64,000 bases of DNA. Source: Patescibacteria group bacterium. GTDB taxonomy: Bacteria > Patescibacteriota > Patescibacteriia > Veblenbacterales > UBA10138. Positions 19,047 to 54,939 of this stretch are shown in pieces. The stretch is taken from assembly GCA_041645215.1 (NCBI GenBank), contig JBAZQK010000005.1, positions 23,562-87,561 of the forward strand, given 5' to 3'. Positions within the stretch are counted from its first letter, which is position 1, and each line of letters opens with the position of its first letter. Position numbers and translations under genes: made by a program. Under the pieces are notes generated by a model that was not told the origin of the DNA, did not search any database, and saw only the letters and a program-made list of their open reading frames with translations.

Positions 19047-19134
19047 ATGGCGGAAGGAGTGCCCACCTGCCGGTAGGCAGGGAATTCTTCCTCGCCCAGG
19101 CACATAGCCGGGGTGCGTCATTCCCAGCCGCGGT

Positions 19135-33725: not shown

Positions 33726-33857
33726 GAATTGTTAAATTAAAATAAACAGTGGATAATATAAATAGTCATTGCGAGCGGAGCGAGTGTGCTCAAAATGACA
33801 ATAACAAAGTTTTTTAAAAAAGTCATAATATTAAAAACTAAATATAAAGGTGCAATA

Positions 33858-35477: not shown

Positions 35478-35617
35478 AAATAATTCTGCCAAGCATCGCG
35501 CTTGGCAAGTCAAAAATAAAGGGTTCATTCAGGTGTTAATTCTCATACAGTTTTCTATAATTGATTACTGCGAGATTTAACACCTTATTTTTTTGTCTTT
35601 TTATCTTTTTTACATTT

Positions 35618-35700
35618 TTCCAATCAAGCAAATACTTCCATACTTCCCAGTATCAAAGTAATTGACGATTTTATAATTATTATGATTTATGCTAAGGTAA
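35618..35700. repeat. Dispersed hairpin element, copy without GC insert
   Basis: caaatacttccatacttcccagtatcaaagtaattgacgattttataattattatgatttatgct; stem aaatactt/aagtattt; related copies at 37590, 39598, 43200, 50362. Confidence 0.75.
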
Positions 35701-35824
35701 CTTGTTAAATAAGATAAAATAGCGTTTAGGGTGTATGATGGATTGTTAAATCAAAATAAACAGTGGATAATATAAATAGTTGAACCAAAAAAGTTTTTTA
35801 AAAACATATATAAGGAATCTAGTC

Positions 35825-37435
35825 ATGAGAACAATAGTTAAGTTGTTCCTAGTTTTGTTTGTATTATTTGTTGCCCCTGTAATGGCTCTTTACCAGCAGG
35901 GAGTTTCATTGCCAACGCAATGGACCAATGTCAGCTCGGAAATAGACTTGTATGCTATTGAAACACTGGACGGCGTGAATGTTTACGCTGCCGGCGGCGC
36001 TAAAATACTCTGCTCTCATAATGGTGGTCAAACCTGGACCAAGCCAGTAACTGATGATGTCTGGTTTAAAGGCATTAAAGTATTTGATAATAACAATGTT
36101 TTAGTTTACGGCGGCGCTTACGGCGACGGTGTTATTTATCAAACCACCGATGGCGGCCAAACCTGGACCATAAATCGTTTAACCGGCCTTAATCTTATAA
36201 TGTCCATGCATTTTTTGGACAGGTTAAATGGTTGGATAACGAGTTATGACGTTGTGGAAATTAATCTTATGGTCATTCGTATACACAAAACTACCGACGG
36301 CGGCCAAACCTGGACTCTAGCCCATTCTTTTATTAGTAGTTATAGACTGCGAAGTATTTGGGCAGTCAATCAAAATACTGTTATAGCCGCAGGCGATAGT
36401 GCTCGAGTTATTATAACTACCAATGCTGGTGTAACCTGGAATAAGATTACTATGCCTAGTGCTGGTCTTACTACTAGCTTTGAATCAATTGTGTTTACCA
36501 ATAATTCTACCGGCTTAATAGCAGGAAATCAGACATCAAGTCAGGGTAATTATGTATTTAAAACTACCGATGGCGGTAAAACTTGGACAATTGTTTTTGG
36601 TAATAAAGATTATTATATTTACCATTTGCAAATGCTGGATAGTAATAATGGTTACGCGGTTGGACAAGTAGGTAAATGGAACCCGGGTAGGATATATGGT
36701 GCCTTATTTAAAACTACTGATGGTGGAAACAATTGGCAGGAAATGTTAGCTAACGGCGATAATAATGCTTACTACGGTGTTAGTTTTATCAATCAGGAAA
36801 GTGGTTTTATCGCTGGTCTTGATGGCATCTATAAGTATCAAAATCATTGGCCTAAGTTTAATATTACCAGCCTAGCCACCGTGGCTTATGTAGATAGTAC
36901 TTATCGGCAAAAGTTGCAGGCGACTGACGTAGATGGCGATAGTCTGCGTTTCAGTTTGGTGAACAGTCCGGTATTCTTGCACATAGTTGATAGTACAATC
37001 ACTGGCAAGCCAACCACTGCTGATACAGGTAGTTATTTAATTACAGTGGTAGTTAGCGATGGCAAGGGTGGAACTGACACCTTAAAGTATAACCTTAAGG
37101 TAGATAAGCTAACTGGTATTGATGATAGTCAAACTGTTCCAGTTACTTATAGTTTGAGCCAAAACTATCCCAATCCGTTTAACCCAAGTACAACTATTGT
37201 TTATTCCATTCCAACCTCCTGCCAAGTTAAGCTTCAAGTTTTAGACATACTTGGCCGAGAAATCGTTGAGTTAGTCAACGAGCAAAAATTCGCTGGCAGT
37301 TACGAAGTAGTTTTTTCCGCCCAAGGCGGATCCGCCTCTGGCGGAAATGCCAGCAATTTGCCTAGCGGTATCTACTTCTATCGCTTGCAAGCTGGCAACT
37401 TCGTCAGCACTAAGAAAATGATGTATCTAAAATAA
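35825..37435 (+). CDS. Secreted BNR/Ycf48-like repeat protein with T9SS C-terminal sorting domain (paralog 2)
   Basis: Signal peptide MRTIVKLFLVLFVLFVAPVMA; TTDGGQTW repeats; He_PIG-like segment; C-terminal SLSQNYPNPFNPSTTIVYSIP...YFYRL...KKMMYLK. Confidence 0.7.
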   Translation: MRTIVKLFLVLFVLFVAPVMALYQQGVSLPTQWTNVSSEIDLYAIETLDGVNVYAAGGAKILCSHNGGQTWTKPVTDDVWFKGIKVFDNNNVLVYGGAYGDGVIYQTTDGGQTWTINRLTGLNLIMSMHFLDRLNGWITSYDVVEINLMVIRIHKTTDGGQTWTLAHSFISSYRLRSIWAVNQNTVIAAGDSARVIITTNAGVTWNKITMPSAGLTTSFESIVFTNNSTGLIAGNQTSSQGNYVFKTTDGGKTWTIVFGNKDYYIYHLQMLDSNNGYAVGQVGKWNPGRIYGALFKTTDGGNNWQEMLANGDNNAYYGVSFINQESGFIAGLDGIYKYQNHWPKFNITSLATVAYVDSTYRQKLQATDVDGDSLRFSLVNSPVFLHIVDSTITGKPTTADTGSYLITVVVSDGKGGTDTLKYNLKVDKLTGIDDSQTVPVTYSLSQNYPNPFNPSTTIVYSIPTSCQVKLQVLDILGREIVELVNEQKFAGSYEVVFSAQGGSASGGNASNLPSGIYFYRLQAGNFVSTKKMMYLK

Positions 37436-37589
37436 AAAAATCTGCCAAGCATCGCGCTTGGCAAGTCAAAAATAAAGGGTTCATTCAGGTGTTAATTCTC
37501 ATACAGTTTTCTATAATTGATTACTGCGAGATTTAACACCTTATTTTTTTATTATTCTTATCTTTTTTCATTTTTCCAATCAAGCAATT

Positions 37590-37672
37590 ACTTCCATACT
37601 TCCCAGTATCAAAGTAATTGACGATTTTATAATTATTATGATTTATGCTAAGGTAACTTGTTAAATAAGACA
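37590..37672. repeat. Dispersed hairpin element copy (no GC insert)
   Basis: Near-identical to 35618..35700. Confidence 0.75.
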
Positions 37673-37875
37673 AAATAGCGTTTAGGGTGTATGATGAATT
37701 GTTAAATTAAAATAGACAGTGGATAATATAAATAGTCATTCTGAAGCTGATGTTCATCGGCTGAAGAATCTAAAGCGAATAATCAAAATGTTACAGATTT
37801 TTCGCTTCGCTCAAAATGACAATAAAAAAGTTTTTTAAAAAAGTTAATAATATCAAATAAATAAAAGGTGACAAA

Positions 37876-39462
37876 ATGAAACGATTAATTATTTTAATCG
37901 TAATACTTGGTTTAGTTTTTTCTAAACCGGTAATTGGTCAATGGACCAAAGTAACTCAAGGCAATTACATGGGCCTTGAAGACATATCGTTTGCCGATGC
38001 TCAGAACGGCATTGCGGTATCTGACCTTGGTCTGCATTATACAACTGATGGTGGCAAAACCTGGCCTGATTATGCTGATTGGAATATGCTCTGGAAATCA
38101 TACACTTATGTGCATTTTCTAGACAATCAGACTGGTTGGATTTTAGGCTATGACGCGGGTGAGCCAGGATACTTTTTTAAAAGTATTGATGCTGGCAAAA
38201 CCTGGCAACAGGTGCAGAATCCGGTTAATGGGTTGATGTATAAAATGTTCTGGCTTAATTCCAATATTGGTTATGCTTTTGGCGGCACGCGCGGCCTCTT
38301 ATTCCGTGGCGACACTACCGGCACTAATGTTGGCTATATTTGGAAAACAACTAACGCTGGCACCACCTGGACCGCCGCCGCAGTTGGCAAGCCTTATGGC
38401 GGTTTTAACGATATGTGGATGCAGTCAAATGGCAAAGGCATACTGATTGGTCCGTATGTTATGTATTCAACGACTGACTTTGGTAATTCCTGGCAAAAGA
38501 AAAATTTTCTTCTTCAAACTAATGAAATATTAAAGAAAGTTTATTTCTTTAATGAGAATGATGGATTTATTTTTTCTTTTAAGTATAAAAATGGTTCATA
38601 TACCAGGTTATATAAAACCAAAGATGGCGGTGCAACTTGGCAATTATGGTCGGAAATTAGTAAGTTTGATATAGGTTTTATGAGTCCGGTTTGTGTGGTT
38701 AATGTTAATAATATTGTGTTATCAGGTAGTTATAGTAATTCGGTAGACACAGCCAATTATCAAGTCAAGCGTTCTATTGATGGCGGTAAAACTTGGCAAA
38801 CCGAATTAACGAATTTTGATAACAATGATTATATGCAGACCATCAAAAAGTTCGGTAACACCTATTGGGGTGTTGGCGCACAAATTTGGCGCTGCGATAA
38901 TGTACCTCCAATGTTTACTGTCAATATAGGCGATTCAATAGCCTATGTTGATTCGCAATATATCCAAGCCTTACAAGCTGTTGACGTGGAAGGTGACCCC
39001 TTAACGTTTAAATTATTAAACGCTCCCCAATTTCTGTCTGTGGCTGATAGCTATGTAAAAGGAATTCCCCGGTCTACCGATATTGGCAAATATGTCATAA
39101 GAGTTGAGGTGTCAGACGGCAAGGGTGGCAAGGATACATTGTCCTATAACCTGAAAGTTGATTTCGCCACCGGCGTTGAGGATGAATTAAGTATTCCAAC
39201 TGAATTCTCGCTTAGTCAAAACTATCCCAATCCGTTTAACCCCAGCACAACCATTAGTTACAGTATTCCAACTTCCTGCCAAGTTCGTTTAACAGTTTTA
39301 GACATACTTGGCCGAGAAATCGTCACATTGGTTGACGAGCATAAATTCGTTGGCAGTTACAATGTAACTTTCACCGCCAGCAATTTGCCCAGCGGTATCT
39401 ACTTCTACCGCTTAACCGCTGGTACTTTCACAAATACCAAAAAAATGACACTCGTTAAATAA
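37876..39462 (+). CDS. Secreted BNR/Ycf48-like repeat protein with T9SS C-terminal sorting domain (paralog 3)
   Basis: MKRLIILIVILGLVFS signal peptide; BNR motifs; VDVEGDPLTFKLLNAPQFLSV He_PIG-like segment; C-terminal NYPNPFNPSTTISYSIP...YFYRL. Confidence 0.7.
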   Translation: MKRLIILIVILGLVFSKPVIGQWTKVTQGNYMGLEDISFADAQNGIAVSDLGLHYTTDGGKTWPDYADWNMLWKSYTYVHFLDNQTGWILGYDAGEPGYFFKSIDAGKTWQQVQNPVNGLMYKMFWLNSNIGYAFGGTRGLLFRGDTTGTNVGYIWKTTNAGTTWTAAAVGKPYGGFNDMWMQSNGKGILIGPYVMYSTTDFGNSWQKKNFLLQTNEILKKVYFFNENDGFIFSFKYKNGSYTRLYKTKDGGATWQLWSEISKFDIGFMSPVCVVNVNNIVLSGSYSNSVDTANYQVKRSIDGGKTWQTELTNFDNNDYMQTIKKFGNTYWGVGAQIWRCDNVPPMFTVNIGDSIAYVDSQYIQALQAVDVEGDPLTFKLLNAPQFLSVADSYVKGIPRSTDIGKYVIRVEVSDGKGGKDTLSYNLKVDFATGVEDELSIPTEFSLSQNYPNPFNPSTTISYSIPTSCQVRLTVLDILGREIVTLVDEHKFVGSYNVTFTASNLPSGIYFYRLTAGTFTNTKKMTLVK

Positions 39463-39597
39463 AATTTTCTGGTGTCATTCTGAAGCCCTCCTTAAGAGGG
39501 CTGAAGAATCTAATAAAATAATGGTTTAGGTGTTAGAGATGCAGTACTCATAATCAGTATTCGCTCTAACACCTTATTTTTTATCGCGAACTCTTTT

Positions 39598-39700
39598 TGA
39601 CAAATACTTCCATACCCACGCACCAGCCCGACCAAGTCGGGGCGGTGCGGGACTTCGCTTCCCAGTATCAAAGTATTGGTCGATTTTATAATTATAGATC
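39598..39700. repeat. Dispersed hairpin element copy carrying a GC-rich hairpin insert
   Basis: aaatacttccataCCCACGCACCAGCCCGACCAAGTCGGGGCGGTGCGGGACTTCGCttcccagtatcaaagtattggtcgattttataatta. Confidence 0.75.
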
Positions 39701-39998
39701 CAATATGCCATTGACAAGGGTATATTTTAGAACTATAGTAAAGTGTTAAATCTATAAAAATAGTTCATACTATTAAATAGTCCCGTTGTTGTTTTGAGAA
39801 GTTAGTCATTGTGTAGTTCTTGTCTGTCATTGCGAGGAAGTCGATTCATATCGGCTGACGCGGCAATCTCATTCTTCTTAAACCAATAATAAAGTGTCAT
39901 CCTGCTTGCCCCGCCTTGGCGGAGGAACAAAGTGAAGGATCTAACAAAGTTTTTTAAAAAAGTTAATAATATTATAAACAAACTATAAAGGTGATAAG

Positions 39999-41588
39999 AT
40001 GAAACGATTAATTATTTTAATCGTAATACTTGGTTTAGTTTATTCTGAACCGGTAATTGGTCAATGGACCAAAGTAACTCAAGGCCAGTTTAAGGGCCTT
40101 CAAGATGTATCGTTTGCCGACGCCAACAACGGCACTGCTGTTGCTGACCTTAGTACATACCGCACCACTGATGGCGGCCATACTTGGTCAGTTTATCCAG
40201 ACTGGAATATGATTTGGAAATCATACACCTATGTTCATTTCTTGGATAATCAAGTCGGTTGGATACTAGGCTATGACGCGGGTGAGCCAGGCTACTTTTT
40301 CAAAAGTATTGATGCTGGCAAAACTTGGCAGCAAGTTGCCAATCCGGTTAATGGATTAATGTACAAAATGTTCTGGTTAAATGCCACTGTTGGTTATGCT
40401 TTTGGCGCCACGCGCGGCATCACTTTCCGTGGCGATACTACCGGCACTAATGTCGGCTATGTCTGGAAAACAACTAATGCTGGTACCACCTGGACCGCGG
40501 CCGCAGTCGGTAAGCCTCGTTGGGGTTTTAATGATATGTGGATGCAGCCAAGCGGAAAGGGTATATTAATTGGCGGGTATGTTATGTATTCAACTTCTGA
40601 TTTTGGTAATTCCTGGCAAAAGAAAAATTTCCTTCTTCAACCTAATGAGATATTAAAAAAAATATATTTCTTTAATGAGAAAGATGGATTGATTTTTTCT
40701 TTTAAGGCAGAAAATGATGGTTCATATACTAGGTTATATAAGACAAATAACGGTGGTATAACCTGGCAATTGTGGTCGGAAATTAGTAAGTTTTATATAG
40801 CTTTTATGAGTCCGGTTTGTGTGGTTAATGTTAATAATATTGTACTATCAGGTATTTATTATAACTCAATAGATACATTAGATTATCATATAAAACGTTC
40901 TATTGACGGCGGTAAAACCTGGCAAACTGAATTAAGGAATTTTGATAGCAACGATTATATGCAGACCATCAAAAAGTTCGGTAATACTTATTGGGGTGTT
41001 GGCGCGCAAATTTGGCGGTGCGATAACGTACCTCCAATATTCACCATTAACATTGGCGATTCAATAGCTTATGTTGATTCGCAGTATACTCAAGCTTTAA
41101 AAGCTGTGGATGTAGATGGTGACCAATTAACATTTAGGTTGCTAGGTGCTCCTCAATTTCTGTCTGTGGCTGATAGTTATGTAAAAGGAATTCCCCGGTC
41201 TACTGACATTGGCAAATATGTTATAAAAGTTGAAGTGTCAGACGGCAAGGGTGGAAAAGATACTTTGTCTTACAACCTGAAAGTTGATTTCGCCACAGGT
41301 GTTGAGGACGAATTAAGTATTCCAACTAAGTTCTCCTTAAGCCAAAACTATCCTAATCCATTCAATCCAAGTACAACTATTAGTTATTCAGTTCCAACTT
41401 CCTGCCAAGTTCGTCTAACGGTTTTAGACATACTTGGCCGAGAAATCGTTACACTAGTTAACGAGTATAAAGTTGTTGGCACTTATGAAGTTAATTTCTC
41501 CGCCAACAATTTACCTAGCGGTATCTACATCTACCGCTTAATCGCTGGTCAGTTCTCACAAACCAAAAAAATGACACTCATAAAATAA
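39999..41588 (+). CDS. Secreted BNR/Ycf48-like repeat protein with T9SS C-terminal sorting domain (paralog 4)
   Basis: About 85% identical to paralog 3 by eye; same signal peptide and C-terminal NYPNPFNPSTTISYSVP...YIYRL. Confidence 0.7.
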   Translation: MKRLIILIVILGLVYSEPVIGQWTKVTQGQFKGLQDVSFADANNGTAVADLSTYRTTDGGHTWSVYPDWNMIWKSYTYVHFLDNQVGWILGYDAGEPGYFFKSIDAGKTWQQVANPVNGLMYKMFWLNATVGYAFGATRGITFRGDTTGTNVGYVWKTTNAGTTWTAAAVGKPRWGFNDMWMQPSGKGILIGGYVMYSTSDFGNSWQKKNFLLQPNEILKKIYFFNEKDGLIFSFKAENDGSYTRLYKTNNGGITWQLWSEISKFYIAFMSPVCVVNVNNIVLSGIYYNSIDTLDYHIKRSIDGGKTWQTELRNFDSNDYMQTIKKFGNTYWGVGAQIWRCDNVPPIFTINIGDSIAYVDSQYTQALKAVDVDGDQLTFRLLGAPQFLSVADSYVKGIPRSTDIGKYVIKVEVSDGKGGKDTLSYNLKVDFATGVEDELSIPTKFSLSQNYPNPFNPSTTISYSVPTSCQVRLTVLDILGREIVTLVNEYKVVGTYEVNFSANNLPSGIYIYRLIAGQFSQTKKMTLIK

Positions 41589-42023
41589 ATTATTTTTAAT
41601 AGGTGTCATTCTGACCCCGTCAGACGAGGGAAGAATCTAATAAAATATCAATATATCTTCGAGGAGGTCATTCAGTACTCTATAATCCAGTACTCCGGCC
41701 ACCTCCTTTTAATTTAATTTTAAATCAGCAACTGCTTCAGTGCTTCGCAGCGCTAAAGCAGTTGATAGGTAGGAGATGATAATTATAACTCCAACATTGA
41801 CAGGGTTTAGACGAATCTATAATTGATTCCTCGTCTAAATCCTTTTTAATTTGGCTGTAATAAGCCATTTTTGTTAAATATGCACAATTTGAATTTGCCA
41901 GATTTGTTTTTTTATTATAAATTAAATATGTGCTTGTGGGCGCAAGCCCCGTTCAGCTAAGGATTTCCTAAGCTGAAGGCAAGCACATAACAACACCCCG
42001 CCTACGCGAGGTGTTTTTATTGT

Positions 42024-42491
42024 TCATTCATCGGCAATATTGTCAGTATATAGCTTTTGTGGCTCGCCGTGTTTAAGTTTTGAATAAGGCATTACACTCC
42101 AGAAAGTAATATTACCATCGCCAACCCGCCTCAATATGACTCGAATTTTAATTTGTTTTTGTCCGACTATTGCCACCAAAGCCCAATACTGAACTTCTTT
42201 GGTAAGGGATAGCCCGTCTCGTTTAGATTTTTTACCAATAATGATAAGGCTTTTTCGGTATTCTTGTACCGTACCGGATTTTTCTATTACTTTAAAAGCC
42301 AGCGGCAATAAACTGAATTTTAGCAGTTGTTCTTTTTTGTTTCTTTCCCGACGAGCGGAAAATTGTAAATGATGCAAACCGTCGGAATTAAGAATTATAT
42401 TAGTTTCAAAATAAGGATTATAAATACTATTTCGTGATTGAAAGAAGTTTTTAGCAATCGTTTTCTTTTCATTGAAATACGTGATGTCCAT
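42024..42491 (-). CDS. Hypothetical protein (island gene)
   Basis: 155-aa ORF, AT-rich, flanked by about 50-bp direct repeats at 41818-41870 and 42548-42595. Confidence 0.4.
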   Translation of the reverse strand: MDITYFNEKKTIAKNFFQSRNSIYNPYFETNIILNSDGLHHLQFSARRERNKKEQLLKFSLLPLAFKVIEKSGTVQEYRKSLIIIGKKSKRDGLSLTKEVQYWALVAIVGQKQIKIRVILRRVGDGNITFWSVMPYSKLKHGEPQKLYTDNIADE

Positions 42492-42590
42492 ATTTTTAGT
42501 TTATCAATTTTATAACAAAATGCAATCTGGCGGCGACCCTGAAGATCTATAATCGATTTCTCGTCTAAACCCTATTTAATTTGGTTGTTA

Positions 42591-43061
42591 TTAATGTTTA
42601 TCAGAAAGGACAGTTAGAGCGTGAGCTATCAAAATCTCAATGACCTTTTTGTCCGAATTATAGCAAGCTATAAAATCATCAACCCGCATAAGACTTCGTT
42701 CAAACGCGTCTTGGCTGGGTATGAAGTCGCTCAATCGGCAATCGCGGGAGGTATAAAACAACATTTGTTTATCATTCCCCTCAAACTGCAGAGTGGCGAA
42801 GGGAATCGCCTGACCATCTATTATAACGCCTGATTCTTCTTTTACCTCTCGCTGTAAGGCCGAGAGTAGGTTAGTATCCCCTGGCTCAACATGTCCGCCT
42901 GGTACATCCCAGCCTCGCTCATTCCGAGTTGCAATAATCTGACCATCTATAAAACCAAGCAAAAATACTGCGCTTACCGATTGTTTTTGAGGCAGGTGGT
43001 TCTCATCAATATACTGGATATGCAATTGGCCCAGTGTAATTTTTTCCAGTGGAGTAATCAT
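42591..43061 (-). CDS. Nudix hydrolase
   Basis: Nudix box GGHVEPGDTNLLSALQREVKEESG. Confidence 0.75.
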   Translation of the reverse strand: MITPLEKITLGQLHIQYIDENHLPQKQSVSAVFLLGFIDGQIIATRNERGWDVPGGHVEPGDTNLLSALQREVKEESGVIIDGQAIPFATLQFEGNDKQMLFYTSRDCRLSDFIPSQDAFERSLMRVDDFIACYNSDKKVIEILIAHALTVLSDKH

Positions 43062-43199
43062 TATTTCTTTCCCATTTGATTTAGTTGATTCAAGTCCTTA
43101 TCTTATTTATCTACGATCAACTGTTATTATATTATCATTTTACTTTTTATTCAAAACCAGTCTTTTTACCCTATAGGTGTTTTTTAATTTAAACGAATT

Positions 43200-43275
43200 A
43201 GTGCAAATACTTCCATACTTCCCAGTATCAAAGTATTTGTCGATTTTATAATTGTCATGATTTATGCTTAAGAAT
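43200..43275. repeat. Dispersed hairpin element copy overlapping the 3' end of the Nudix gene
   Basis: gtgcaaatacttccatacttcccagtatcaaagtatttgtcgattttataattgtcatgatttatgcttaagaatc; supplies the last 8 codons and the stop of the 43255..43785 gene. Confidence 0.75.
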
Positions 43276-43785
43276 CTCTTTATGCATTTCTGTGGTAATT
43301 GAGTTGCACCAATTATCAGGATTATCGTTTTTGTCAGCCAGGTATTCATCAAAACTAAGCCACCGCGTAGCTTCAATTTCGCCATCTTTAAAATTAAATT
43401 GAGTTGATGCTTGGTTTAAATAAAAAGCCAACATAACAGTTAGGTGTTTGTAATTTTCGCTCCTTTCTTTCCGCCAACAGGCTAGCCGACCATCATTAAG
43501 GTTTAGTCCCAGTTCTTCGTTTATTTCCCTGGCAACATTTTGTTCAAAGTTTTCCCCCTTAGCCACGTGCCCGCCAAAGTAAGTTTGCCATTTATTGGGA
43601 TTACCCTCGTTGTTAGTGGAGCGCTTGGAACAGAGAATTTTTCCATCAGGATTAATTACCCAAATATTGGTAACAGCATGCCAAATTCGGTATGGTTTTT
43701 GGTGTGCCTCGGCGCGGGTATGAGGTTCTACTGGGTTGCCGTTTTCGTCAAAGCAGGCTAGTAGTTCTGACGTATCTTTGGACAT
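43255..43785 (-). CDS. Nudix hydrolase
   Basis: Nudix box GGHVAKGENFEQNVAREINEELG. Confidence 0.75.
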   Translation of the reverse strand: MSKDTSELLACFDENGNPVEPHTRAEAHQKPYRIWHAVTNIWVINPDGKILCSKRSTNNEGNPNKWQTYFGGHVAKGENFEQNVAREINEELGLNLNDGRLACWRKERSENYKHLTVMLAFYLNQASTQFNFKDGEIEATRWLSFDEYLADKNDNPDNWCNSITTEMHKEILKHKS

Positions 43786-44072
43786 GATGTTCTATTAGTA
43801 ATCAGATACTATGAATTATAACATGAAAATTACAAACCCAAATTCTGCGAGATGGTCATACAGTACTCTTATTTAGTACTCCGACCACCTCTTTTTAATT
43901 TACCCTTGGCCTTGATTGTTTTGGTATTTATGCTAAAGTAACATGTTAAGTAAGGCAAAACCATTTTTTAGGAGTATAGTAAAGTTAAATTAAAAAAGAG
44001 TGGTTGAAATGTAATTATAAAGAAATAAATAAAGCTTTTTAAAAATTTGTAAACAATCTCAAGGGGTATGTC

Positions 44073-45710
44073 ATGGAAAATAATAAGAAAACAGTAGTAT
44101 TAGTTACCCCACCGTCGCATACTCACCGTACAGCCGAAGAAAACCTGGGAATTGGCTATTTAGCCTCAAGTTTGAGAGCTAAAGGTTTCCCAGTGGTAAT
44201 TATAGATGCTTGGTTATATAACTATCCAATAAATATTCTAGTGGAGAAAATATTGACGATAAAAAATATTCTTTTTGTCGGCATTTCTTGTTATCGGTCA
44301 TCTTTGGATGACGTTGGAAATGTTATAAAGCAACTTAGACCGCTTGGTTATAATGGTGTTGTTACAGTTGGTGGATTTGGTCCAACTTTTCATGATTCCG
44401 ATTTTCTTTCTGTTGGTGTGGATGTTGTGTTAAAAGGAGAAGCGGAAGATTCAATAGTTGAATTAGCTAACTTATTAAATAATCGCAATTATCAAAAAAA
44501 CAACTTATCTAAAATATCTGGAGCATCTTGGTTAGGCCAAGCTGGACAAATCAACCGCACTAATCCCATTAAGGCTGATCATTTAGATTCCTTGTTCTTT
44601 CCAGCGAGAGATACTATGGCAATGAATTTACAAATGAAAAATCCAGCTCATCTTGTTACCAGCCGTGGTTGCACTTCTAATTGCTTGTTTTGTTCCATAA
44701 TCTCGTTTGAGAGACTGACAAAAAATAGGGTTACCTGGCGACAGCGCAGTATAGGCAACATAATTGAAGAGATAAAATATCTTTTTAACGAATATGGCAT
44801 ATCTACCTTTAAAATCGTGGACGATAGCTTTATAGAAGAAGGTAGAGATGTGGTTTGGACGGAAACTTTCCTTAATGAGTTGCGCAAAAATAACCTTAAA
44901 ATTCGATTCCGCACTCAGGTAAAAGCGAACGTTCTAACCAGTGAGTTAGTTGTTTGCTTAAAAGAAGCCGGTTGGTTTTCGACCAGTGTCGGTATTGAAA
45001 ATTTTGCTGAGACGGCCTTGCGTCGGATGAATAAGTCTTCTAGTCTTGAGCAAAATTTAAACGCCTTGGCTATGCTAGAAGAAAACGGTATTTACGTAGT
45101 CATGAATCTGATCCTTTTTGATCACAGCACGACTTGGTCCGAGTTAAAAGAAAATCTCTTTTACTTAAACAAGTTTAGCTGGCCGGTCATTAAGGGTTTA
45201 TTTACGGAAATGTACGCAGCCGAAGGTACGGCTTATTCCAGATTGTTGAAAAAAAGGGGCGAGCTGCTACCCAATAGTAATTTCATGAATAGGCAGTATA
45301 ATTTAGTCAATCATGATGTGGGGGTGATTTATACTTGTTTAAAGAAATGGCATAAGTCCCATTCAGCCGTATATGATCACGCTATAAACGTAATTGCCGC
45401 GCCTAAAAACTTGCCAGATTATGGTTATCAGAAGTATTTCAGGGTTTATCGACCGCTTTATGATTTGGATTTGCAGTTTTTTGCCAAGTTAATTAGTTTA
45501 CTAGAACAGTCTGCTCATAAACAACTGCCGCAAGCCCTGGAGTTTACTAATAACTTTATAACAAATACAAAACAAATTTTCGCCACAGTGGAAGGGGAAG
45601 TAACAGATTTAGATTTAGACTTTGGTATTTCTTACCAAGCCGAGTCTAATCCTTTTTTACACATCCCAGGAGATAGAAATGGAAAATCTCATAGAAAAAA
45701 TACCTCCTAA
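44073..45710 (+). CDS. B12-binding domain radical SAM protein
   Basis: N-terminal Rossmann-like B12-binding region (VVLVTPPS...GISCY...VTVGGFGPT); CxxxCxxC cluster motif TSRGCTSNCLFCS. Confidence 0.75.
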   Translation: MENNKKTVVLVTPPSHTHRTAEENLGIGYLASSLRAKGFPVVIIDAWLYNYPINILVEKILTIKNILFVGISCYRSSLDDVGNVIKQLRPLGYNGVVTVGGFGPTFHDSDFLSVGVDVVLKGEAEDSIVELANLLNNRNYQKNNLSKISGASWLGQAGQINRTNPIKADHLDSLFFPARDTMAMNLQMKNPAHLVTSRGCTSNCLFCSIISFERLTKNRVTWRQRSIGNIIEEIKYLFNEYGISTFKIVDDSFIEEGRDVVWTETFLNELRKNNLKIRFRTQVKANVLTSELVVCLKEAGWFSTSVGIENFAETALRRMNKSSSLEQNLNALAMLEENGIYVVMNLILFDHSTTWSELKENLFYLNKFSWPVIKGLFTEMYAAEGTAYSRLLKKRGELLPNSNFMNRQYNLVNHDVGVIYTCLKKWHKSHSAVYDHAINVIAAPKNLPDYGYQKYFRVYRPLYDLDLQFFAKLISLLEQSAHKQLPQALEFTNNFITNTKQIFATVEGEVTDLDLDFGISYQAESNPFLHIPGDRNGKSHRKNTS

Positions 45711-46833
45711 TGAGAAATTAAGCATAGAAAATATCGGCTGGACATTAGGTAACGATTGTCCTTATAGATGCAATCAATGTTACAGTCTTACTGCCAGGTT
45801 AAAAGGTAAAGACTTGGAAAGCAAACACGTTGATAGAATAGTTGACCAATTAAGCATAAACAAGATAAAGACAGTTAATTTAGGTGGCAATGAGCCAATA
45901 TTCACTAACGGTTTGGATGTTAAAAAGACTAAATTGCCTTATATTATTAAGTCTTTAGTAGATAAGAACATCTTGGTCGGCTTAACCACGGCTGGTGTGA
46001 CACTTCAACACCTGATCAGGTATTATGGCGACTACTTTTTACTGCTTAATGATGTTGATGTAAGTATTGATAGTCCTTTTAAATGGGAACATGATAAAAA
46101 CAGGGGAGCTCAGTTGTTTGATTCGGCTATATGGGTCGCCAATATGTGTCAGGCTCAGGGGATTGAGCACACTTTGGTAATGTGCGGTATGAATTGGAAT
46201 CTCTCAGAAAGTCATTTGCAAGGCTTGATAAATTTAGCCAAAGCAACGGGTAGTAACTTGAGAATAAACTACTTGAAACCGATTGAAGAAAAACATTTGG
46301 ATATTTTTCCAAGTGCGCGACAATATTATGAATCGGCACAATACTTGATTGACAGATGTAGTATAGTTGATTTGGGTGAGCCATTACTGTCCTCGGTTTA
46401 TTCTGATTTGGAAAAAGGGTGTCCTTGCGGTACGAAATCTTTTAGAATTCATTCCATCACCCCTGATGGCAAGGTGCCGGTTAGCCCCTGCGTTTATATG
46501 CACGATTATCGGTATGGGGACTTACTTAAAGACGATTTGATAGATATCATCAACTCAAATCAATTTAAAGCCTTTCGTCAAAGACGAAGTAACCCAGCAA
46601 ACATTCCAGGATGTAATTGCTGTGAACACTTAAATAGTTGTCGTGGTGGTTGCGCTGCCCGTTCCAGTTTATTTCATAAAAATAAAAATATATTAGAAGT
46701 GAAAGATCCTTATTGTTTAAAGGATTATACTGAAACAATTGTGGGTTCGTCACTTATTTCTGATGTTAATTTTGGGCAAAAATCATTGGTACATAGAGAT
46801 TATTTGTGTACCCTTATCTTATCGCCTAAGTGA
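45679..46833 (+). CDS. Radical SAM protein with SPASM C-terminal domain (maturase-like)
   Basis: CPYRCNQC radical SAM motif; C-terminal Cys-rich SPASM-like region (CPCGTKSF...CVYMHD...GCNCCEHLNSCRGGCAARS); start 6 nt after GGAGA and overlapping the upstream gene by about 30 nt. Confidence 0.75.
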   Translation: MENLIEKIPPNEKLSIENIGWTLGNDCPYRCNQCYSLTARLKGKDLESKHVDRIVDQLSINKIKTVNLGGNEPIFTNGLDVKKTKLPYIIKSLVDKNILVGLTTAGVTLQHLIRYYGDYFLLLNDVDVSIDSPFKWEHDKNRGAQLFDSAIWVANMCQAQGIEHTLVMCGMNWNLSESHLQGLINLAKATGSNLRINYLKPIEEKHLDIFPSARQYYESAQYLIDRCSIVDLGEPLLSSVYSDLEKGCPCGTKSFRIHSITPDGKVPVSPCVYMHDYRYGDLLKDDLIDIINSNQFKAFRQRRSNPANIPGCNCCEHLNSCRGGCAARSSLFHKNKNILEVKDPYCLKDYTETIVGSSLISDVNFGQKSLVHRDYLCTLILSPK

Positions 46834-46899
46834 TAAAACAATGTTATAATTAAATGAGGAAGTTTAAGGCTTCCTCATTATTATTTTCTCATTAAATTT

Positions 46900-47244
46900 A
46901 TGGTAACCCAGGCCAAAAATTTTCTTAATAAAATTGTTAAAGTGAAGATTGATAGGCCATTAGGTGCCAAGCACCCTAAACATGATTTTATTTATGAAGT
47001 TAATTACGGGTTTGTGCCGGGTACTTTGAGTTCTGACCAAAAAGAATTGGATGCTTATGTTTTAGGAGTGGATGGGCCATTGGAAGATTTTGAGGGTAGA
47101 TGTATAGCAGTTATTCATCGTACCAACGATGATGATGATAAATTGGTAGTTATAGCGCCAAATTCTCCAAATATGTCAGACGAAGAAATAATGAAAAGGG
47201 TGAATTTTCAAGAGCAGTTTTTTAAGTCTCATATTATTAGGTAA
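46900..47244 (+). CDS. Short inorganic-pyrophosphatase-like protein
   Basis: NYGFVPGT and LDAYVLGVDGP resemble the family I PPase NYGFIPxT / DGDPLDVLV motifs; only 114 aa. Confidence 0.45.
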   Translation: MVTQAKNFLNKIVKVKIDRPLGAKHPKHDFIYEVNYGFVPGTLSSDQKELDAYVLGVDGPLEDFEGRCIAVIHRTNDDDDKLVVIAPNSPNMSDEEIMKRVNFQEQFFKSHIIR

Positions 47245-47307
47245 TTGTTCTTTGTAATAAAAATAAATGGCCTCCATTAAATGGCGGCCATTTTATTAAA
47301 TATGATT

Positions 47308-48204
47308 TTATTTAATCATGAAATCGGGTAGATATTCGAAGTGAGTACTTTTGTTAGTAACATGTTTCTTTTGTTCACGGCAGTTACATTTTATGCCTTT
47401 GATTTTAGAAAGTTTGGGTAGAGCGGCAAGAAATATATCAAACGTCTTTTTTCTGCCAGTAATGATGTTGTTATCAATACATGTGCGAGCCAAAGGATCT
47501 TGCGCTAAAAAACGTGCTCTAAGTTTTCTATCATCAATCGTAGCCGCTAATCCAACATAATGACATCCAGCTTCTCTGGCTAGTGTTGCCTCTATGTCAG
47601 CGGTTTGACCGACAACATCCCATCTGTTTTTTGCATAATAATTTAATTCAGCTTCTGTTTCAATGCGAGGATAACCATGAAAGCAGACGTATATACCTTT
47701 TTTGTGCACTTTAAAGGGTATAAGCTTTGTTGATTGTATTAAGACATCCGTGGCTTCAGCACAAAATGGTTTAAGCATATCAACGTTTCTAAAGCCAGTG
47801 TCCATGTTTCTTGTTTGATCATAACCACCCATGCCGACTAAATCGTTTAGGATGTATACATCGCCAGCCTGGCTGTTGGGCTTGATTGAACCACAAGTAA
47901 ACGTTCCAACAATCGTTTCTATACCCATACTTGAAAGTGTTTCTTGTGTAAGGAGGAAATTAATTTTTTGTGACGTAGATCTAATTCGATCAAATCTTCC
48001 ATATATGATAATAAATGGAATACCCGCATGTTTAGTTAAAAAACAGCGATTGTGGATGCCGATTTTTGTTTCTACTATGATGTGATTATACGGGTTCTTA
48101 TTTAAGAACCAGTCAGGTCTAGCAATAATAGCGACCTTAGTTTTGAATTCCTTGCTGGCTTGGGCAAGTGACTCAAAATTTACGTAAAGACTTTGACTTA
48201 TCAT
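47308..48204 (-). CDS. PNP/MTAP-family nucleoside phosphorylase with Cys-containing C-terminal extension
   Basis: GTFTCGS and VCFHGYPRIETEAE resemble MTAP/PNP phosphate- and ribose-binding regions; extra C-terminal tail ...KCNCREQKKH. Confidence 0.6.
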   Translation of the reverse strand: MISQSLYVNFESLAQASKEFKTKVAIIARPDWFLNKNPYNHIIVETKIGIHNRCFLTKHAGIPFIIIYGRFDRIRSTSQKINFLLTQETLSSMGIETIVGTFTCGSIKPNSQAGDVYILNDLVGMGGYDQTRNMDTGFRNVDMLKPFCAEATDVLIQSTKLIPFKVHKKGIYVCFHGYPRIETEAELNYYAKNRWDVVGQTADIEATLAREAGCHYVGLAATIDDRKLRARFLAQDPLARTCIDNNIITGRKKTFDIFLAALPKLSKIKGIKCNCREQKKHVTNKSTHFEYLPDFMIK

Positions 48205-48205
48205 A

Positions 48206-48832
48206 TTAACTCCTTTGTATAGGTATTACTTGAGAAATTATTGACAAGCATTCATTGATTGAGTTTTTTTCTGTATCCAGCATTAAGTAATTTCTATGCA
48301 ATCTAGTTACATGATAGATCAATCGTTCTTGCATAGTTGAAATCAAATCTGGTTTATTGAAAAACAAATGATCAATTTCAGTACTATTGCTGTTATCTTT
48401 AATTCTTTTGAGTATAATGTCTGGATTGGCTTGTAAAATAATAGTGAGATGAGGATTGATCAATAAGTTTCTTCGCAAATATTCATCAAGTAATAAAGAA
48501 TCAGCGTTTAGGTTGTGAATTTCTCTGAAGGTTGTTATTGATAAATCATATCTTTCTTGTACAACTGTTTCTCCTCTAGCAATACTCGGCAGAATAGAAT
48601 CACTTGTATCAAAAATGCAATCAGCCCAGTAGAAGGCAGTTGAATAACCAAGATCAGTTATTTCTTTTGATTTGACTTCGCTGGAAAAAGGGGAATTGCT
48701 CAAAGCGCCTCGTTTGTGTCGGATAATTTGTTTGCTATTGTTTCTTAATAGTTTAACTAACTCAATAGCCAGAGTCGTTTTTCCGCATTTAGGAGGAGAC
48801 TCAAAGACTATGAATAATCCTGGATTTTTCAT
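48206..48832 (-). CDS. Thymidylate-kinase-like P-loop (d)NMP kinase
   Basis: Walker A ESPPKCGKTT and DRY-like VVQERYDLS motif; 1-bp gap from the phosphorylase gene suggests an operon. Confidence 0.55.
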   Translation of the reverse strand: MKNPGLFIVFESPPKCGKTTLAIELVKLLRNNSKQIIRHKRGALSNSPFSSEVKSKEITDLGYSTAFYWADCIFDTSDSILPSIARGETVVQERYDLSITTFREIHNLNADSLLLDEYLRRNLLINPHLTIILQANPDIILKRIKDNSNSTEIDHLFFNKPDLISTMQERLIYHVTRLHRNYLMLDTEKNSINECLSIISQVIPIQRS

Positions 48833-49032
48833 GTCATTACCTCTTATTTAGTTTGTAATATACAATTTCAATTTAATTGATTTTGTTATTGTGTTTAGTT
48901 TTTGTTACTTTTTGTTTATCATATCTTAGTATTATTTGAGGTAAAGTCAAGCCTTGCTTTTTTTCTGTTAATTTGCTAGAATATTTTGAATAAATAAAAC
49001 TAAAAAAGAATATTAAAAATAGAGGTATAAAA

Positions 49033-50295
49033 ATGAAAGAAAAAATAACTTATGGTCTTGATTTTGGAACTTCCAATACGGCCATTGTGGCTAATTATAA
49101 GGGAATTCTTAGACCAATCCCCTTGTCTTCTGATGGCAGTTTGATAACTCCAACCGTATTGTATTTTCCGCCGGATGGCAGAGTGTACAAATTCGGAGAT
49201 GAGGCCGTTAAAGAATATCTCGCCCGAAAAATGAAAGGCAGATTTATGCAGTCGCTTAAATCGTTTTTACCAAGTGAGTCTTTTTCTGGAACTTATATCT
49301 CCGGTTTTGGGCACAGGTATCTGCATGACTTGATTGCCCTTATATTTTCCGAGGTTAAAAAAAGAGCCGACATTCTGATTGGTGAGAACATAAGATCGGT
49401 AGTTATCGGTATACCAGCTAAATTTGTTAATGAATTAGACAACTCTTCAAGAAATTTAGCAGAAGAAAGATTGCGCATGGCCGCTGATATGGTTGGTTTT
49501 AAAGAAGTTAATTTTATTTTAGAGCCAATAGCCGCGGCTTATTACTACGAAACTTTATTAAATTCATCGGAAACTGTTTTGGTTGGTGATTTTGGCGGCG
49601 GTACTACAGATTTCACTATTATGAATCTTTCTCCAAATGGTAATAAAAAAATTGACCGCAAGGACGATATTTTGGCAACCAGCGGTATACCCATAGCCGG
49701 GAATAACTTCACTTCGGACTTAATGCGCAACAAGTTGCTTAAATACTTTGGCCAAGGTAGCAAATTTAAGTCTTGGGACAAGTGGTTAGAAATGCCCGTT
49801 CATATTTTACAAATGATATGTAAATGGGAAAATTTAGCCTTTATGAGGACTCCGGAATACCGCAAGACCATAAATATGCTTCTCAATAAAACAGATGATT
49901 ACGATGGTATATCAAGATTGCACACTCTAATAGAAGATAATCTTGGTTATACATTGTTCCAATCTATAGAAAGAGCCAAAATTGAGTTGTCGGGAAATGT
50001 TGTATCAAAGATATTGTTTTCGGAAAGCAACATTAAAATTGACGAGGAGGTGTCTAGAGAGGAGTATGATTATTTGATAGGTTATATGTACGAAAAGATA
50101 GATGAGACTATACAAGAAATGTTAAAGGTCTCATCAAAAAATCCGAAAGATATCGATGCGGTATTCTTAACTGGCGGAACTTCTTTTACTCCACTGATAA
50201 AAGATTATTTTACTAAGAAGTTTGGTAAAAATAAGATTAAAAGTAAAGATAATTTTACCGATGTTGCCAACGGTTTGGCCGCTTCGATGGTATGA
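49033..50295 (+). CDS. Hsp70-family ATPase, nucleotide-binding domain only (YegD-like)
   Basis: Phosphate 1 GLDFGTSNTAIV, phosphate 2 VLVGDFGGGTTDFTI, and adenosine motif VFLTGGTSFTPLIKDYF; no substrate-binding domain. Confidence 0.7.
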   Translation: MKEKITYGLDFGTSNTAIVANYKGILRPIPLSSDGSLITPTVLYFPPDGRVYKFGDEAVKEYLARKMKGRFMQSLKSFLPSESFSGTYISGFGHRYLHDLIALIFSEVKKRADILIGENIRSVVIGIPAKFVNELDNSSRNLAEERLRMAADMVGFKEVNFILEPIAAAYYYETLLNSSETVLVGDFGGGTTDFTIMNLSPNGNKKIDRKDDILATSGIPIAGNNFTSDLMRNKLLKYFGQGSKFKSWDKWLEMPVHILQMICKWENLAFMRTPEYRKTINMLLNKTDDYDGISRLHTLIEDNLGYTLFQSIERAKIELSGNVVSKILFSESNIKIDEEVSREEYDYLIGYMYEKIDETIQEMLKVSSKNPKDIDAVFLTGGTSFTPLIKDYFTKKFGKNKIKSKDNFTDVANGLAASMV

Positions 50296-50361
50296 AATGA
50301 TTTCTAAAAATTGAACGGGACTTGAGAAATTGATTTTAATCAACTCAAGTCCCTATTTATT

Positions 50362-50525
50362 TGCCTGCGATTAGTGCAAATACTTCCATACCCACACACC
50401 AGTCCCGTCTGACGGGACCAGCCCGACCAAGTCGGAGCGGTGCGGCCTGCCCGCCTTGGGCGAGGACTTCGCTTCCCAATATCAAAGTATTGGTCGTTTT
50501 TAATTATCACAATTTATACTTAAGA
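50362..50525. repeat. Dispersed hairpin element copy with a longer nested GC-rich insert
   Basis: gtgcaaatacttccataCCCACACACCAGTCCCGTCTGACGGGACCAGCCCGACCAAGTCGGAGCGGTGCGGCCTGCCCGCCTTGGGCGAGGACTTCGCttcccaatatcaaagtattggtcg... Confidence 0.75.
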
Positions 50526-50639: not shown

Positions 50640-50970
50640 GTAAGAAATCTAAAAATCAGTGACCAGGAATAGTAGGCTATTTAAGTCTAGCCGAGAGAGG
50701 GGAGAATAGTGTGAACTCCCTCTAGACCAATAGTTCGAATGGCCCTGCGAGATGTAAGCCGAAATTGGCTGACTTTAGCCAAAAGTAGTCTTTACCGGGA
50801 TTTACCCGCCGTAACCATGGGTTAGAACGTGTTGCCCCAAGCAAAGCGTTCTGAAAGCGTTCTCCGCCTCGGCGGAGAGAATAAAGGTGGTACCGCGAAG
50901 GTTGATATGACCTCCGTCCTTTAAACAGCATAGCTTGACTATGTTGTTTGAGGGATGGGGGTTTTTTGTT
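50640..50970 (+). promoter_or_regulatory. Candidate T-box riboswitch leader (tRNA-sensing antitermination element)
   Basis: T-box signature AAAGGTGGTACCGCG at 50882-50896; terminator-like hairpin aaacagcatag..ctatgttgttt plus T-run at 50920-50966; Stem I-like distal region with CTAG..GAGAGA..AGTGTGA..CTAG at 50686-50724; TTGACA at 50593; GC hairpin 50553-50577 upstream. Confidence 0.5.
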
Positions 50971-54380: not shown

Positions 54381-54431
54381 ACAATATAAACCTGAAAAAT
54401 ACCAAGGCGGTATTTTTAACAGCGGAGCTAT

Positions 54432-54848: not shown

Positions 54849-54939
54849 AAATTCTCCCCAATGTTTAGCCGGGGGAGTTTTTAGTTTAGCTTAACCAGCG
54901 CTATTTGATAAATTATGGTAAGCCATTTATAGTGTTAAT

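Follow-up and report, generated by a model that had tools for sequence, protein, structure and literature searches.

A dispersed AT-rich palindrome of Patescibacteria, a candidate operator of YerC/HisR-type proteins, hosts nested GC-rich insertions

The stretch of DNA analysed here (the window) comprises 64,000 nucleotides of contig JBAZQK010000005.1 (positions 23,562 to 87,561 of the forward strand) from a Patescibacteria group bacterium (assembly GCA_041645215.1). It contains five copies of an AT-rich hairpin element, ATACTTCCATAC-TTCCCA-GTATCAAAGTAT, all located on the + strand, with cores that start at 35631, 37587, 39603, 43206 and 50379 (copies c1 to c5). A preliminary description of this DNA had listed the same five copies in the same orientation, with start coordinates 3-17 nt upstream of the cores. 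According to direct reading and alignment, the unit common to the five places is GCAAATACTTCCATAC, followed by TTCCCAGTATCAAAGTATTTGTCGATTTTATAATT. The genes around the copies include four tandem BNR/Por_Secre_tail paralogues, two Nudix and two radical-SAM genes, an Hsp70-like gene and housekeeping genes.

Three copies belong to the paralogue array. Copy c1 (+ strand, arms 35631-35643 and 35644-35662, element span 35629-35664) is a short form with the left arm ATACTTCCATAC, the spacer TTCCCA and the right arm GTATCAAAGTAA; it scores 65.9 bits with a covariance model of the element and is located upstream of BNR/Por_Secre_tail paralogue 2, with the -10-like hexamer TATAAT at 35672-35677. Its twin by tandem duplication, c2 (+ strand, arms 37587-37599 and 37600-37618, span 37585-37620, 67.0 bits), is also short and lies upstream of paralogue 3. 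Copy c3 (+ strand, 39603-39615 and 39659-39677, span 39599-39683, 41.2 bits) lies upstream of paralogue 4; unlike its paralogues c1 and c2, it is a long form, filled with a 43-nt insert (39616-39658). The other two copies are, as previously noted, not associated with the BNR genes, and the tandem duplication explains neither of them. Copy c4 (+ strand, arms 43206-43218 and 43219-43237, span 43203-43240, 67.8 bits) is a short form between two minus-strand Nudix genes, with TATAAT at 43247-43252. Copy c5 (+ strand, 50379-50391 and 50473-50491, span 50376-50494) is a long composite form with an 81-nt insert (50392-50472) and is found between the terminator of the Hsp70-like gene and the promoter and T-box of a PPDK_N/PEP-utilizer gene.

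The left half of the element has six matches in the window versus 0.93 expected, a number reached in 0 of 100 shuffles, and the right half has five versus 0.04 expected, with no shuffle reaching five. A chance origin of the copies is excluded. Folding, which the preliminary description had proposed as a check, gave the short form a predicted energy of −12.9 kcal/mol (z = −5.4), with a 10-bp outer stem, a CC/CA internal loop, an inner stem AUAC(U)/(A)GUAU and a small loop. The 3′ tail reads tcgattttataatt after c1-c4 and tcgtttttaatt after c5. Beyond the core, c1, c2, c4 and c5 share 35-60 nt of extra flank, and c4 and c5 have approximately 100 nt in common including both flanks, in otherwise unrelated contexts. 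One copy had been proposed to supply the C-terminus of a Nudix gene. This does not hold for the c4 hairpin, which ends 15 nt before the stop codon; it does hold for the shared 3′ tail, which overlaps the last ~5 codons of the 176-aa Nudix gene (43255-43785, minus strand). Read on the minus strand, the c4/c5 3′ flank encodes the last residues of this protein (...KEILKHKS*), and a similar dead reading frame follows c5.

Beyond the window, pattern scans of genome and metagenome collections returned mostly chance matches. True copies were recovered in the Patescibacteria contigs L010/L015 = L037, L016, L039, L046-L049, L053, L057, L059, L064 and L065. The inner 22 nt are invariant among the copies from these contigs and the outer stem co-varies, with the pairs GAC...GTC, GCC...GGC, AAATACTT...AAGTATTT and AAAAAACT...AGTTTTTT. 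Across 17 copies 94% of the positions pair, a value that none of 500 shuffles reached. The covariance model found no diverged extra copies across 188 kb; copies are all-or-none. A match of 22 bits in a coding region (33228-33272) was only weak and was judged to be due to chance. In a context survey of 14 sources (the window and 13 loci) all 21 copies were intergenic, 15 of them co-oriented with the downstream gene, and their position is often directly 3′ of an intrinsic terminator or stop codon. Genes of various kinds follow (sufS, rnhA, recR, smpB), and some copies are located within operons (sufD-sufS, yerC-smpB). Once the yerC-derived loci described below are added, the family comprises 31 distinct copies. 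At the gathering threshold no Rfam family matched the element, and matches up to E = 10 were at chance level (≤16 bits); searches of the literature for the sequence string and for repeats or regulons of the Candidate Phyla Radiation (CPR) revealed nothing relevant. The element thus appears not to have been recorded in Rfam or in the searched literature.

Two of the loci recovered by pattern scan, L016 and L039, carry the element in front of a TrpR-family gene (PF01371, YerC/YecD type), and a second copy in L016 overlaps the yerC stop codon. Altogether, eight independent yerC lineages were compared (L016, L039, L074, L075, L076/77, L078-81, L082-84 and L085-87), six of which were fetched by YerC protein homology alone. 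A palindrome of this architecture is present upstream of yerC in 8/8 lineages, at most 239 nt from the start codon. The dyad centre is located 31-95 nt before the start codon in seven of the eight and 239 nt before it in L075. Downstream, a palindrome lies within 35 nt of the yerC stop codon in all seven loci for which sequence was available. The two flanking copies are in direct, same orientation. The L074, L075, L078, L083 and L085-87 loci have no copy beyond these two in ~60 kb. The synteny of yerC and smpB is conserved, and the element is kept at the orthologous yerC-smpB positions across lineages whose proteins are 52-70% identical and whose flanks have fully diverged. Likewise, the yerC-upstream copies of L016 and L039 have kept the core within fully diverged flanks, which is consistent with purifying selection on the cores. 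In L074 a gene for a Por_Secre_tail protein also adjoins yerC.

The palindromes differ between the lineages. Arms and spacer are of the standard type in L078-81 and L076/L077, whose YerC proteins are 63% and 62% identical, respectively, to that of L016. The L074 palindrome (YerC 68% identical to L016) reads ATACTTTGATAC / TTCCCA / GTATCAAAGTAT, in which the internal loop is closed by a change of CC to TG. The L075 palindrome (62%) reads ATACTTCCATAC / TCGCAA / GTATGGAAGTAT; here the loop is closed by a change of CA to GG, and the spacer is new. In L083 from Doudnabacteria (39%) it is ATACTTAAATAC / TTTACA / GTATTTAAGTA, and in L085-87 (52%) CTGCTTCGCTGC / TCGCGA / GCAGCGAAGCAG. The spacer thus differs by lineage (TTCCCA, TCGCAA, TTTACA, TCGCGA). 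The consensus of the aligned types is [xTxCTTxx][xTxC]-N6-[GxAx][xxAAGxAx], with CTT/AAG, T18/A29 and C20-T21/A26-G27 invariant. Dyad symmetry is maintained: in 30 copies of all types 83.5% of the positions pair and both partners have changed in 12 of the 18 pairs; none of 500 shuffles reached this.

The YerC profile matches the YerC/HisR-type TrpR-like structures 3frw, 3kor and 3g1c (E = 1e-15 to 1e-18) and, weakly, E. coli TrpR. An AlphaFold2 model (pLDDT 78) shows a TrpR fold in the N-terminal domain, with template modelling (TM) scores of ~0.8 (normalised by target length) to 3frw, 3kor and 3g1c and ~0.7-0.75 to 1tro and 1trr. The CPR protein has in addition a conserved, four-helix C-terminal extension of ~75 aa, which gave no enzyme-like structural match and no match in Pfam or the PDB. 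A motif W..KRRYPMYFWPELL..EI...A..RQK..L is found in this extension (residues ~120-177 of protein P0024; alignment columns ~150-200). The ~100-aa Firmicutes HisR/YerC proteins are without a C-terminal helical extension. No HUH-like match to YerC was obtained by Pfam, PDB sequence search or Foldseek, and the predicted structure shows no HUH or DDE domain.

In one lineage, site and protein have changed together. In the lineage of protein P0028 (L085-87) all four half-sites changed, ATAC to CTGC and GTAT to GCAG, and the recognition helix changed from SQTIAR(V/I)N to SSTIAKIN (Q to S, R to K); the replaced R is at least 90% conserved elsewhere in the alignment. A palindrome of this second, GC type is also present in the window: the segment 1723-1772 (strand not assigned) is a perfect 50-bp palindrome with 25-bp arms, CTGCTTCGCTGC-TCGCGA-GCAGCGAAGCAG, and its core CTGCTTCGCTGCTCGCGAGCAGCGAAGCAG is the one found on both sides of yerC in the second paralogue lineage (L085-L087). 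The genes on either side of this palindrome are divergent, and a promoter-like site TTGACA-N17-TAAAAA follows 25 nt downstream. Since the window holds both AT-type and GC-type palindromes, two yerC paralogues are expected in the genome. The AT-type-flanked P0024 is MFA4818993, and MFA4818573 is a 90%-identity mate of the GC-type-flanked P0028; both accessions fall in the run of the window proteins (MFA4818744-MFA4818793). Judged from this numbering, the metagenome-assembled genome (MAG) of the window appears to encode both paralogues.

Promoter-like signals are found on one side of the element. A -10-like hexamer lies 2-16 nt after the right arm in 13/31 unique copies, compared with 3/31 at the mirrored position on the left, and TATAAT directly follows the yerC-upstream copies in L039 and L076. 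The -10-like box explains the conserved tail tcgattttataatt and the orientation bias. If the box is used, the dyad centre would be at about -31 to -37, a position typical of repressor sites.

The presence of the palindromes on both sides of yerC in all lineages, together with their co-variation with the protein, suggests an operator-like, protein-binding site. We therefore propose, with a probability of roughly 55%, that the AT-rich hairpin is the cognate operator-like site of a Patescibacterial YerC/HisR-type TrpR-family protein that has been dispersed as a small repeat family. The putative site would be a dyad of ~38-40 bp made of four 8-bp-phased half-sites, [ATACTTnn][ATAC]-N6-[GTAT][nnAAGTAT]. 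At the regulator gene, one copy would cover the gene's own promoter region and the second would directly follow the stop codon; further copies would be spread through intergenic DNA, usually behind a terminator or stop codon and in the orientation of the gene that follows. In the ~40% of copies with a -10-like box 4-12 nt after the right arm, we infer that bound protein would occlude the -35 region and thereby repress transcription. The candidate sites in the window precede three BNR paralogues with type IX secretion system (T9SS) tails, a Nudix gene and the gene for a T-box-controlled PEP (phosphoenolpyruvate)-utilizing enzyme.

Several observations weigh against this proposal. The palindromes carry copy-specific extensions (CCTACACT/AGTGTAGG in L074, TTTCAT/ATGAAA in L085, the 25-bp arms at 1723-1772); a protein footprint needs no such extended palindromy, which suggests that an intrastrand hairpin or cruciform was selected for or gave rise to the extensions. 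At conserved positions, for example downstream of yerC in L076/L077, long forms have been kept in which 43-170 nt separate the inner half-sites; a dimer bridging the dyad would be unable to bind these. Many genomes of the main clade have exactly the same spacer TTCCCA and the same asymmetric CC/CA mismatch, a conservation that exceeds the need of an uncontacted spacer. Operators are not usually placed directly 3′ of a stop codon. A generic sigma-70 promoter scan showed no enrichment at the copies, approximately one third of which are without a -10-like box. A single lineage switch lies behind the co-variation of site and helix, and the accession numbering is the sole basis for placing both paralogues in one MAG. 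A plain operator model leaves the palindrome extension, the long forms, the invariant spacer and the obligatory second copy unexplained, which keeps a hairpin/cruciform or REP-like (repetitive extragenic palindromic) reading alive.

The long forms show that the spacer, which forms the loop of the hairpin, is a true insertion hot spot. The insert of c3 (39616-39658, + strand), CCACGCACCAGCCCGACCAAGTCGGGGCGGTGCGGGACTTCGC, starts directly 3′ of ATAC. It had been described as a perfect hairpin, but only 12 of its 14 pairs form and a 2x2 mismatch (AG versus GC) makes it imperfect. In 9/9 long copies the same 43-nt unit follows directly after ATAC, starting with CCAC(G/A)CACCAG and ending with GGACTTCGC. 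Searches with up to four mismatches found no match outside the AT-type spacer, and an independent repeat was therefore rejected. Copies c1/c2 and c3 are a paralogous empty/filled pair that arose by the tandem BNR duplication and differs by exactly 43 nt. An allelic series shows the same: L076:41-89 is short, whereas L077:26-117 and the copy at 790 in L047 are long, with flanks identical on both sides. Target-site duplications around the GC-rich inserts, a check proposed in the preliminary description, were not found; comparison of the empty site CCATAC|TTCCCAG with filled sites leaves at most a 1-nt ambiguity.

The insert is itself a target. The 81-nt composite insert of c5 (50392-50472, + strand, directly 3′ of ATAC) consists of a c3-type insert and two further sequences, n1 and n2. 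The first, n1 (50403-50421; 19 nt, TCCCGTCTGACGGGACCAG), has ACCAG repeats on its flanks, and n2 (50445-50464; 20 nt, GCCTGCCCGCCTTGGGCGAG) begins like the left end of a miniature inverted-repeat transposable element (MITE) that flanks lemA, so that the suspected link between c5 and the lemA-flanking elements was confirmed. A third member of the L076/L077 locus series, L049:689-881, contains the 43-nt insert plus a 105-nt MITE (GCCTGCCCGCCATCGGCCTC...GGCTTAGGCAGGCGG). In the window, lemA has on either side a free-standing copy that is collinear with this MITE: a MITE-like element at 28226-28347 (+ strand) with the inverted ends GCCTGCCCGCC...GGGCAGGCGGG, and a second GCCTGCC-ended copy at 29084-29181 (+ strand). 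The lemA-flank elements are ~100-120 nt long, with GCCTGCCCGCC / GGCAGGC(GGG) ends, an AT-rich interior and the contexts tacatt...ttatttt(t/a)cattttga. MITE remnants are located at one internal point of the insert: 20 nt in c5, 10 nt (GGGCAGGCGG) in L076:1035-1136 and none in L077:936-1027. The 6-bp spacer, which is not constrained in sequence across lineages, is the point at which the 43-nt hairpin element inserts or excises, and this insert in turn receives the dispersed GCCTGCC-ended MITE, of which deletions have left remnants. In its position 3′ of a tetranucleotide and its lack of a duplication, the insertion resembles single-strand transposition of the IS200/IS605 type, which we infer as a possible mechanism; no enzyme was found, and no TnpA was seen in the window and the fetched loci.

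Comparison with related contigs showed that the copies mark the edges of strain-variable DNA. Contig L030 is 99% identical to the window up to the ATAC of c4 and continues with an insert, the right arm and a different 2 kb, which contain a 208-aa gene of no known identity and a ROK kinase gene, before it rejoins the window near 50650. The 2 kb replace the 7.2-kb c4-c5 segment, and the left junction is exactly at ATAC|. A Logan contig with 100% identity to the window breaks off within c4. The BNR/He_PIG/Por_Secre_tail array (33786-41588) has four paralogues in the window versus two in the 99.6%-identical L035; the region upstream of the first paralogue is without the element. Owing to their near identity, the copies also coincide with the breakpoints at which segments are replaced between strains and tandem duplications vary. 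The preliminary description had read the element as mobile, recombinogenic or an insertion hot spot. The hot spot in the spacer and the position of copies at the edges of variable DNA are borne out; an autonomous mobility of the AT-rich core is not.

Contig L030 (= L044, JBBAAT010000109.1 / Ga0265292_1003824) is labelled as a 'Bacteroidales bacterium' MAG, although it is 99% identical to the window over 2.4 kb. This label is probably a binning error in the public record. A cross-phylum element, which the label would suggest, was rejected, since the window proteins, deposited on a 101-kb contig, belong to a Patescibacteria MAG and one of their cluster mates at 90% identity comes from Candidatus Kerfeldbacteria. 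Shine-Dalgarno use (our reading of the start regions), TTGACA-type promoters and the T-box also speak against a cross-phylum element. Judged from these sequences, the family of the element belongs to Patescibacteria. In a Patescibacterium, sorting domains for type IX secretion would not be expected.

Alternatively, the short hairpin could be a selfish, non-autonomous palindrome of the REP or MITE kind that an unseen transposase (e.g., Y1/HUH) mobilises in trans, in single-stranded form, and that has thereby spread in intergenic DNA. YerC would then be flanked by its palindromes as REP-associated tyrosine transposases (RAYTs) are by REPs, and would be a binding or taming factor instead of a classical regulator. 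The all-or-none occurrence of copies across 188 kb and the 35-60 nt of flank shared by c1, c2, c4 and c5 in unrelated contexts are in line with this explanation. So are the tandem clusters in mosaic intergenic regions (three copies in 450 bp of L047, two copies in L049), the different cognate palindromes of the lineages, which resemble REP-RAYT pairs, the palindromy that reaches to copy-specific ends and the copies at rearrangement breakpoints. The short element shows, however, neither a recognisable target-site duplication nor any presence/absence polymorphism of the whole element among the loci compared, and it is retained at orthologous yerC-smpB positions while the flanks diverge. The flanked gene encodes a TrpR fold without HUH or DDE domains, and its two copies are direct instead of inverted. 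Pfam and NCBIfam searches of most window open reading frames (ORFs) of at least 150 aa identified no transposase or recombinase, and an all-against-all BLASTP of the ORFs around the copies found no recurrent protein family; a nearby RAYT or other catalytic transposase was therefore rejected. Taken together, we regard a selfish palindrome as unlikely.

In the mosaic regions of L047 (330-1100, minus strand) and L049 (1080-1160), short fragments after the copies resemble the 3′ coding end of a neighbouring gene for a 2484-aa surface protein. They read ...DWDAVRAIAYSGAKR*, GGDWDAAREL and GGDWGAVRAIA. Together with repeated aatattcagc(t/g)(g/a)cctcttt modules they look like orphan gene-end cassettes in a mosaic intergenic array.

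The points that a plain operator leaves unexplained can also be joined in a speculative reading that we hold to be doubtful. Each of the extended TrpR-family paralogues might own a private family of long, hairpin-capable palindromes, located on both sides of its gene and at scattered sites of the genome, and might recognise a hairpin, cruciform or single-stranded DNA, not a flat operator. Such a pair might form a REP-RAYT-like protein-repeat system without a transposase, serving genome-wide regulation or chromosome organisation, and the palindrome loop might be a dedicated landing pad for nested GC-rich mini-elements.

The element might instead act as RNA, as a transcript stabiliser, a processing site or a protein-binding stem-loop whose long forms carry extra apical helices. 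The covariation of the stem includes copy-specific outer pairs, four G·U-type pairs were counted by eye on the + strand versus one on the − strand, and the co-orientation of 15/21 copies and the copies inside operons would fit a transcribed element. The inserts, moreover, occur only in the loop, and the long form is predicted to fold as a tidy three-way junction in which the 3′ GGGA of the insert pairs with UCCC of the old spacer. One pair of the insert stem reads C-G, U·G, C·A and U-A in different copies, a compensatory change from C-G to U-A with U·G intermediates. Many copies, on the other hand, follow an intrinsic terminator and precede the next promoter, so that they would not be expected to be transcribed. 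The concerted change of outer and inner tetramers (ATAC to CTGC) is needed by a repeated protein contact and not by pairing. The commonest form keeps the CC/CA mismatch, which is closed in two different ways in other lineages; the associated protein has a DNA-binding fold, and the lack of any Rfam match up to E = 10 also led us to reject a known RNA family. A structured RNA is, consequently, quite unlikely.

Very improbable is a site for site-specific recombination (attC-, dif- or pdif-like) that bounds gene cassettes, with the spacer as crossover region. The inverted arms around an asymmetric 6-bp spacer, the direct orientation of the five window copies, the swap of the 7.2-kb segment for 2 kb with its left junction at ATAC| and the cassette-like position of yerC between two direct copies would agree with such a site. 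The right junction of L030 is, however, not at a copy but in a diverged promoter at ~50650, the 'cassettes' comprise several genes, on either strand and under promoters of their own, and the conserved yerC-smpB synteny shows that yerC is not moving as a cassette. The arms are without R''/R' GTTRRRY boxes, and no integrase or Xer protein was found in the annotated window ORFs or the listed genes of the fetched loci. An integron attC or Xer dif-like site was rejected for the same lack of GTTRRRY and for inter-copy segments of one to seven genes on both strands. Also dismissed were a tRNA or tmRNA fragment (ARAGORN finds only two tRNA-Ser genes, elsewhere), an intrinsic terminator (the stem is rich in A and T, the loop does not vary, and a canonical terminator is often already present just before the element) and a sigma-70 promoter in the core or an extracytoplasmic function (ECF), sigma-54 or sigma-32 promoter (on inspection neither spacings nor hexamers fit, and no promoter was called at the copies by the scan).

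The T-box that had been noted downstream of c5 was recovered as a T-box leader (RF00230) at 50650-50924 (+ strand), with 91.3 bits versus a gathering cut-off of 93, E = 1.6e-20 and a full-length model match of 1-219. It is almost certainly genuine, though formally under the Rfam cut-off. The specifier loop reads GAA-UGG-C, and the specifier is probably that for Trp. The gene that follows encodes an 851-aa PPDK_N/PEP-utilizer protein (PEP synthase or Rph-like) and not an aminoacyl-tRNA synthetase; a PEP-utilizer gene is an unusual T-box target. Copy c5, a candidate site of the TrpR-family type, lies ~100 nt upstream of the T-box. At least four Nudix-family genes are located in or beside the window (42591-43785, ~7600-8040, ~54430-54850), and in the unrelated contig L046 the element likewise has a Nudix homologue beside it. 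Differing GC-rich 'gtcattgcgag...' and 'attctgaagc...gctgaagaat' hairpin inserts occur in the 5′ untranslated regions of the BNR paralogues (33740-33790, 37735-37860, 39820-39930); nested in a common gtcatt...ctcaaaatgac frame, they represent another family of small inserted palindromes. Many further GC-rich hairpins are found in intergenic DNA, e.g., at 19048-19134 and 21262-21430.

The genomes of Patescibacteria are tiny; to our knowledge, hardly any of their regulators have been characterised, and no genetic system is known for them. A conserved pair of protein and site would, if true, be the first testable regulon for a near-universal CPR transcription factor. This putative pair can be read from sequence alone, through eight lineages and a lineage-specific switch of site and recognition helix. 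Candidate sites before variable T9SS-tail surface paralogues, a Nudix gene and a T-box gene may tie regulation to strain-level surface variation. The three-level nesting of miniature palindromes at one nucleotide position, with clean filled and empty alleles, offers a natural case for loop targeting. For annotators it is a caution that the GC-rich islands in the copies are insertions and not genes.

Among known repeats, the dRS3/NIME (neisserial intergenic mosaic element) and Correia elements of Neisseria are small inverted-repeat units in mosaic intergenic regions beside variable surface-protein genes. They serve as recombination breakpoints, and some carry promoter elements. We know of no sequence relation between them and the element described here, and of no dedicated regulator gene to which they are tied. 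The 43-nt insert resembles the palindrome-associated transposable elements (PATEs) of the IS200/IS605 type in its position exactly 3′ of a fixed tetranucleotide (ATAC in 9/9 long copies) without a target-site duplication; its body is an imperfect hairpin, and its target a potentially single-stranded hairpin loop. It differs in its length of only 43 nt, with one hairpin instead of separate left-end and right-end hairpins, in its restriction to this one target and in that no TnpA gene was identified in the sequences covered. With REP/RAYT systems the AT-rich element shares the many near-identical copies of a short intergenic palindrome, a single-copy gene with its cognate palindromes on either side, palindrome families that differ by lineage and track the protein, and copies in mosaic arrays like bacterial interspersed mosaic elements (BIMEs). 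The flanked gene, however, encodes a helix-turn-helix protein of TrpR fold (PF01371 with a helical extension) and not a Y1/HUH transposase, the flanking copies are direct and not inverted, and the element has no GTAG-type 5′ tetranucleotide. Its density is modest, with five copies in 64 kb and none in ~60 kb of some relatives.

The closest comparison is that with HisR and TrpR. B. subtilis YerC is HisR (PMC9413887). The operators of HisR and TrpR are 20-bp palindromes with a 6-bp spacer (cacTTTAnnnnnnTAAAgtg), TrpR recognises GNACT half-sites 8 bp apart, and approximately half of the hisR genes have an autoregulatory site (PMC9413887). The Patescibacterial system agrees in the protein fold (PF01371; nearest solved relatives 3frw, 3kor and 3g1c), in palindromic inner half-sites around a 6-bp spacer, nnATAC-N6-GTATnn in the element as in cacTTTAnnnnnnTAAAgtg, in an 8-bp half-site period as in the tandem binding of TrpR (1trr) and in a site before the regulator's own gene. 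It differs in a new consensus, ATACTTnnATAC-N6-GTATnnAAGTAT or its CTGC variant, in four half-sites over ~30 bp, the second pair lying 8 bp outward, with copy-specific palindromic extensions, and in the second copy directly after the yerC stop codon in every lineage. The CPR protein has its ~75-aa C-terminal extension, which the ~100-aa Firmicutes proteins lack, and no his or trp genes lie downstream of the element. Finally, the element described here differs from these operators in being a near-identical dispersed repeat that hosts nested insertions.

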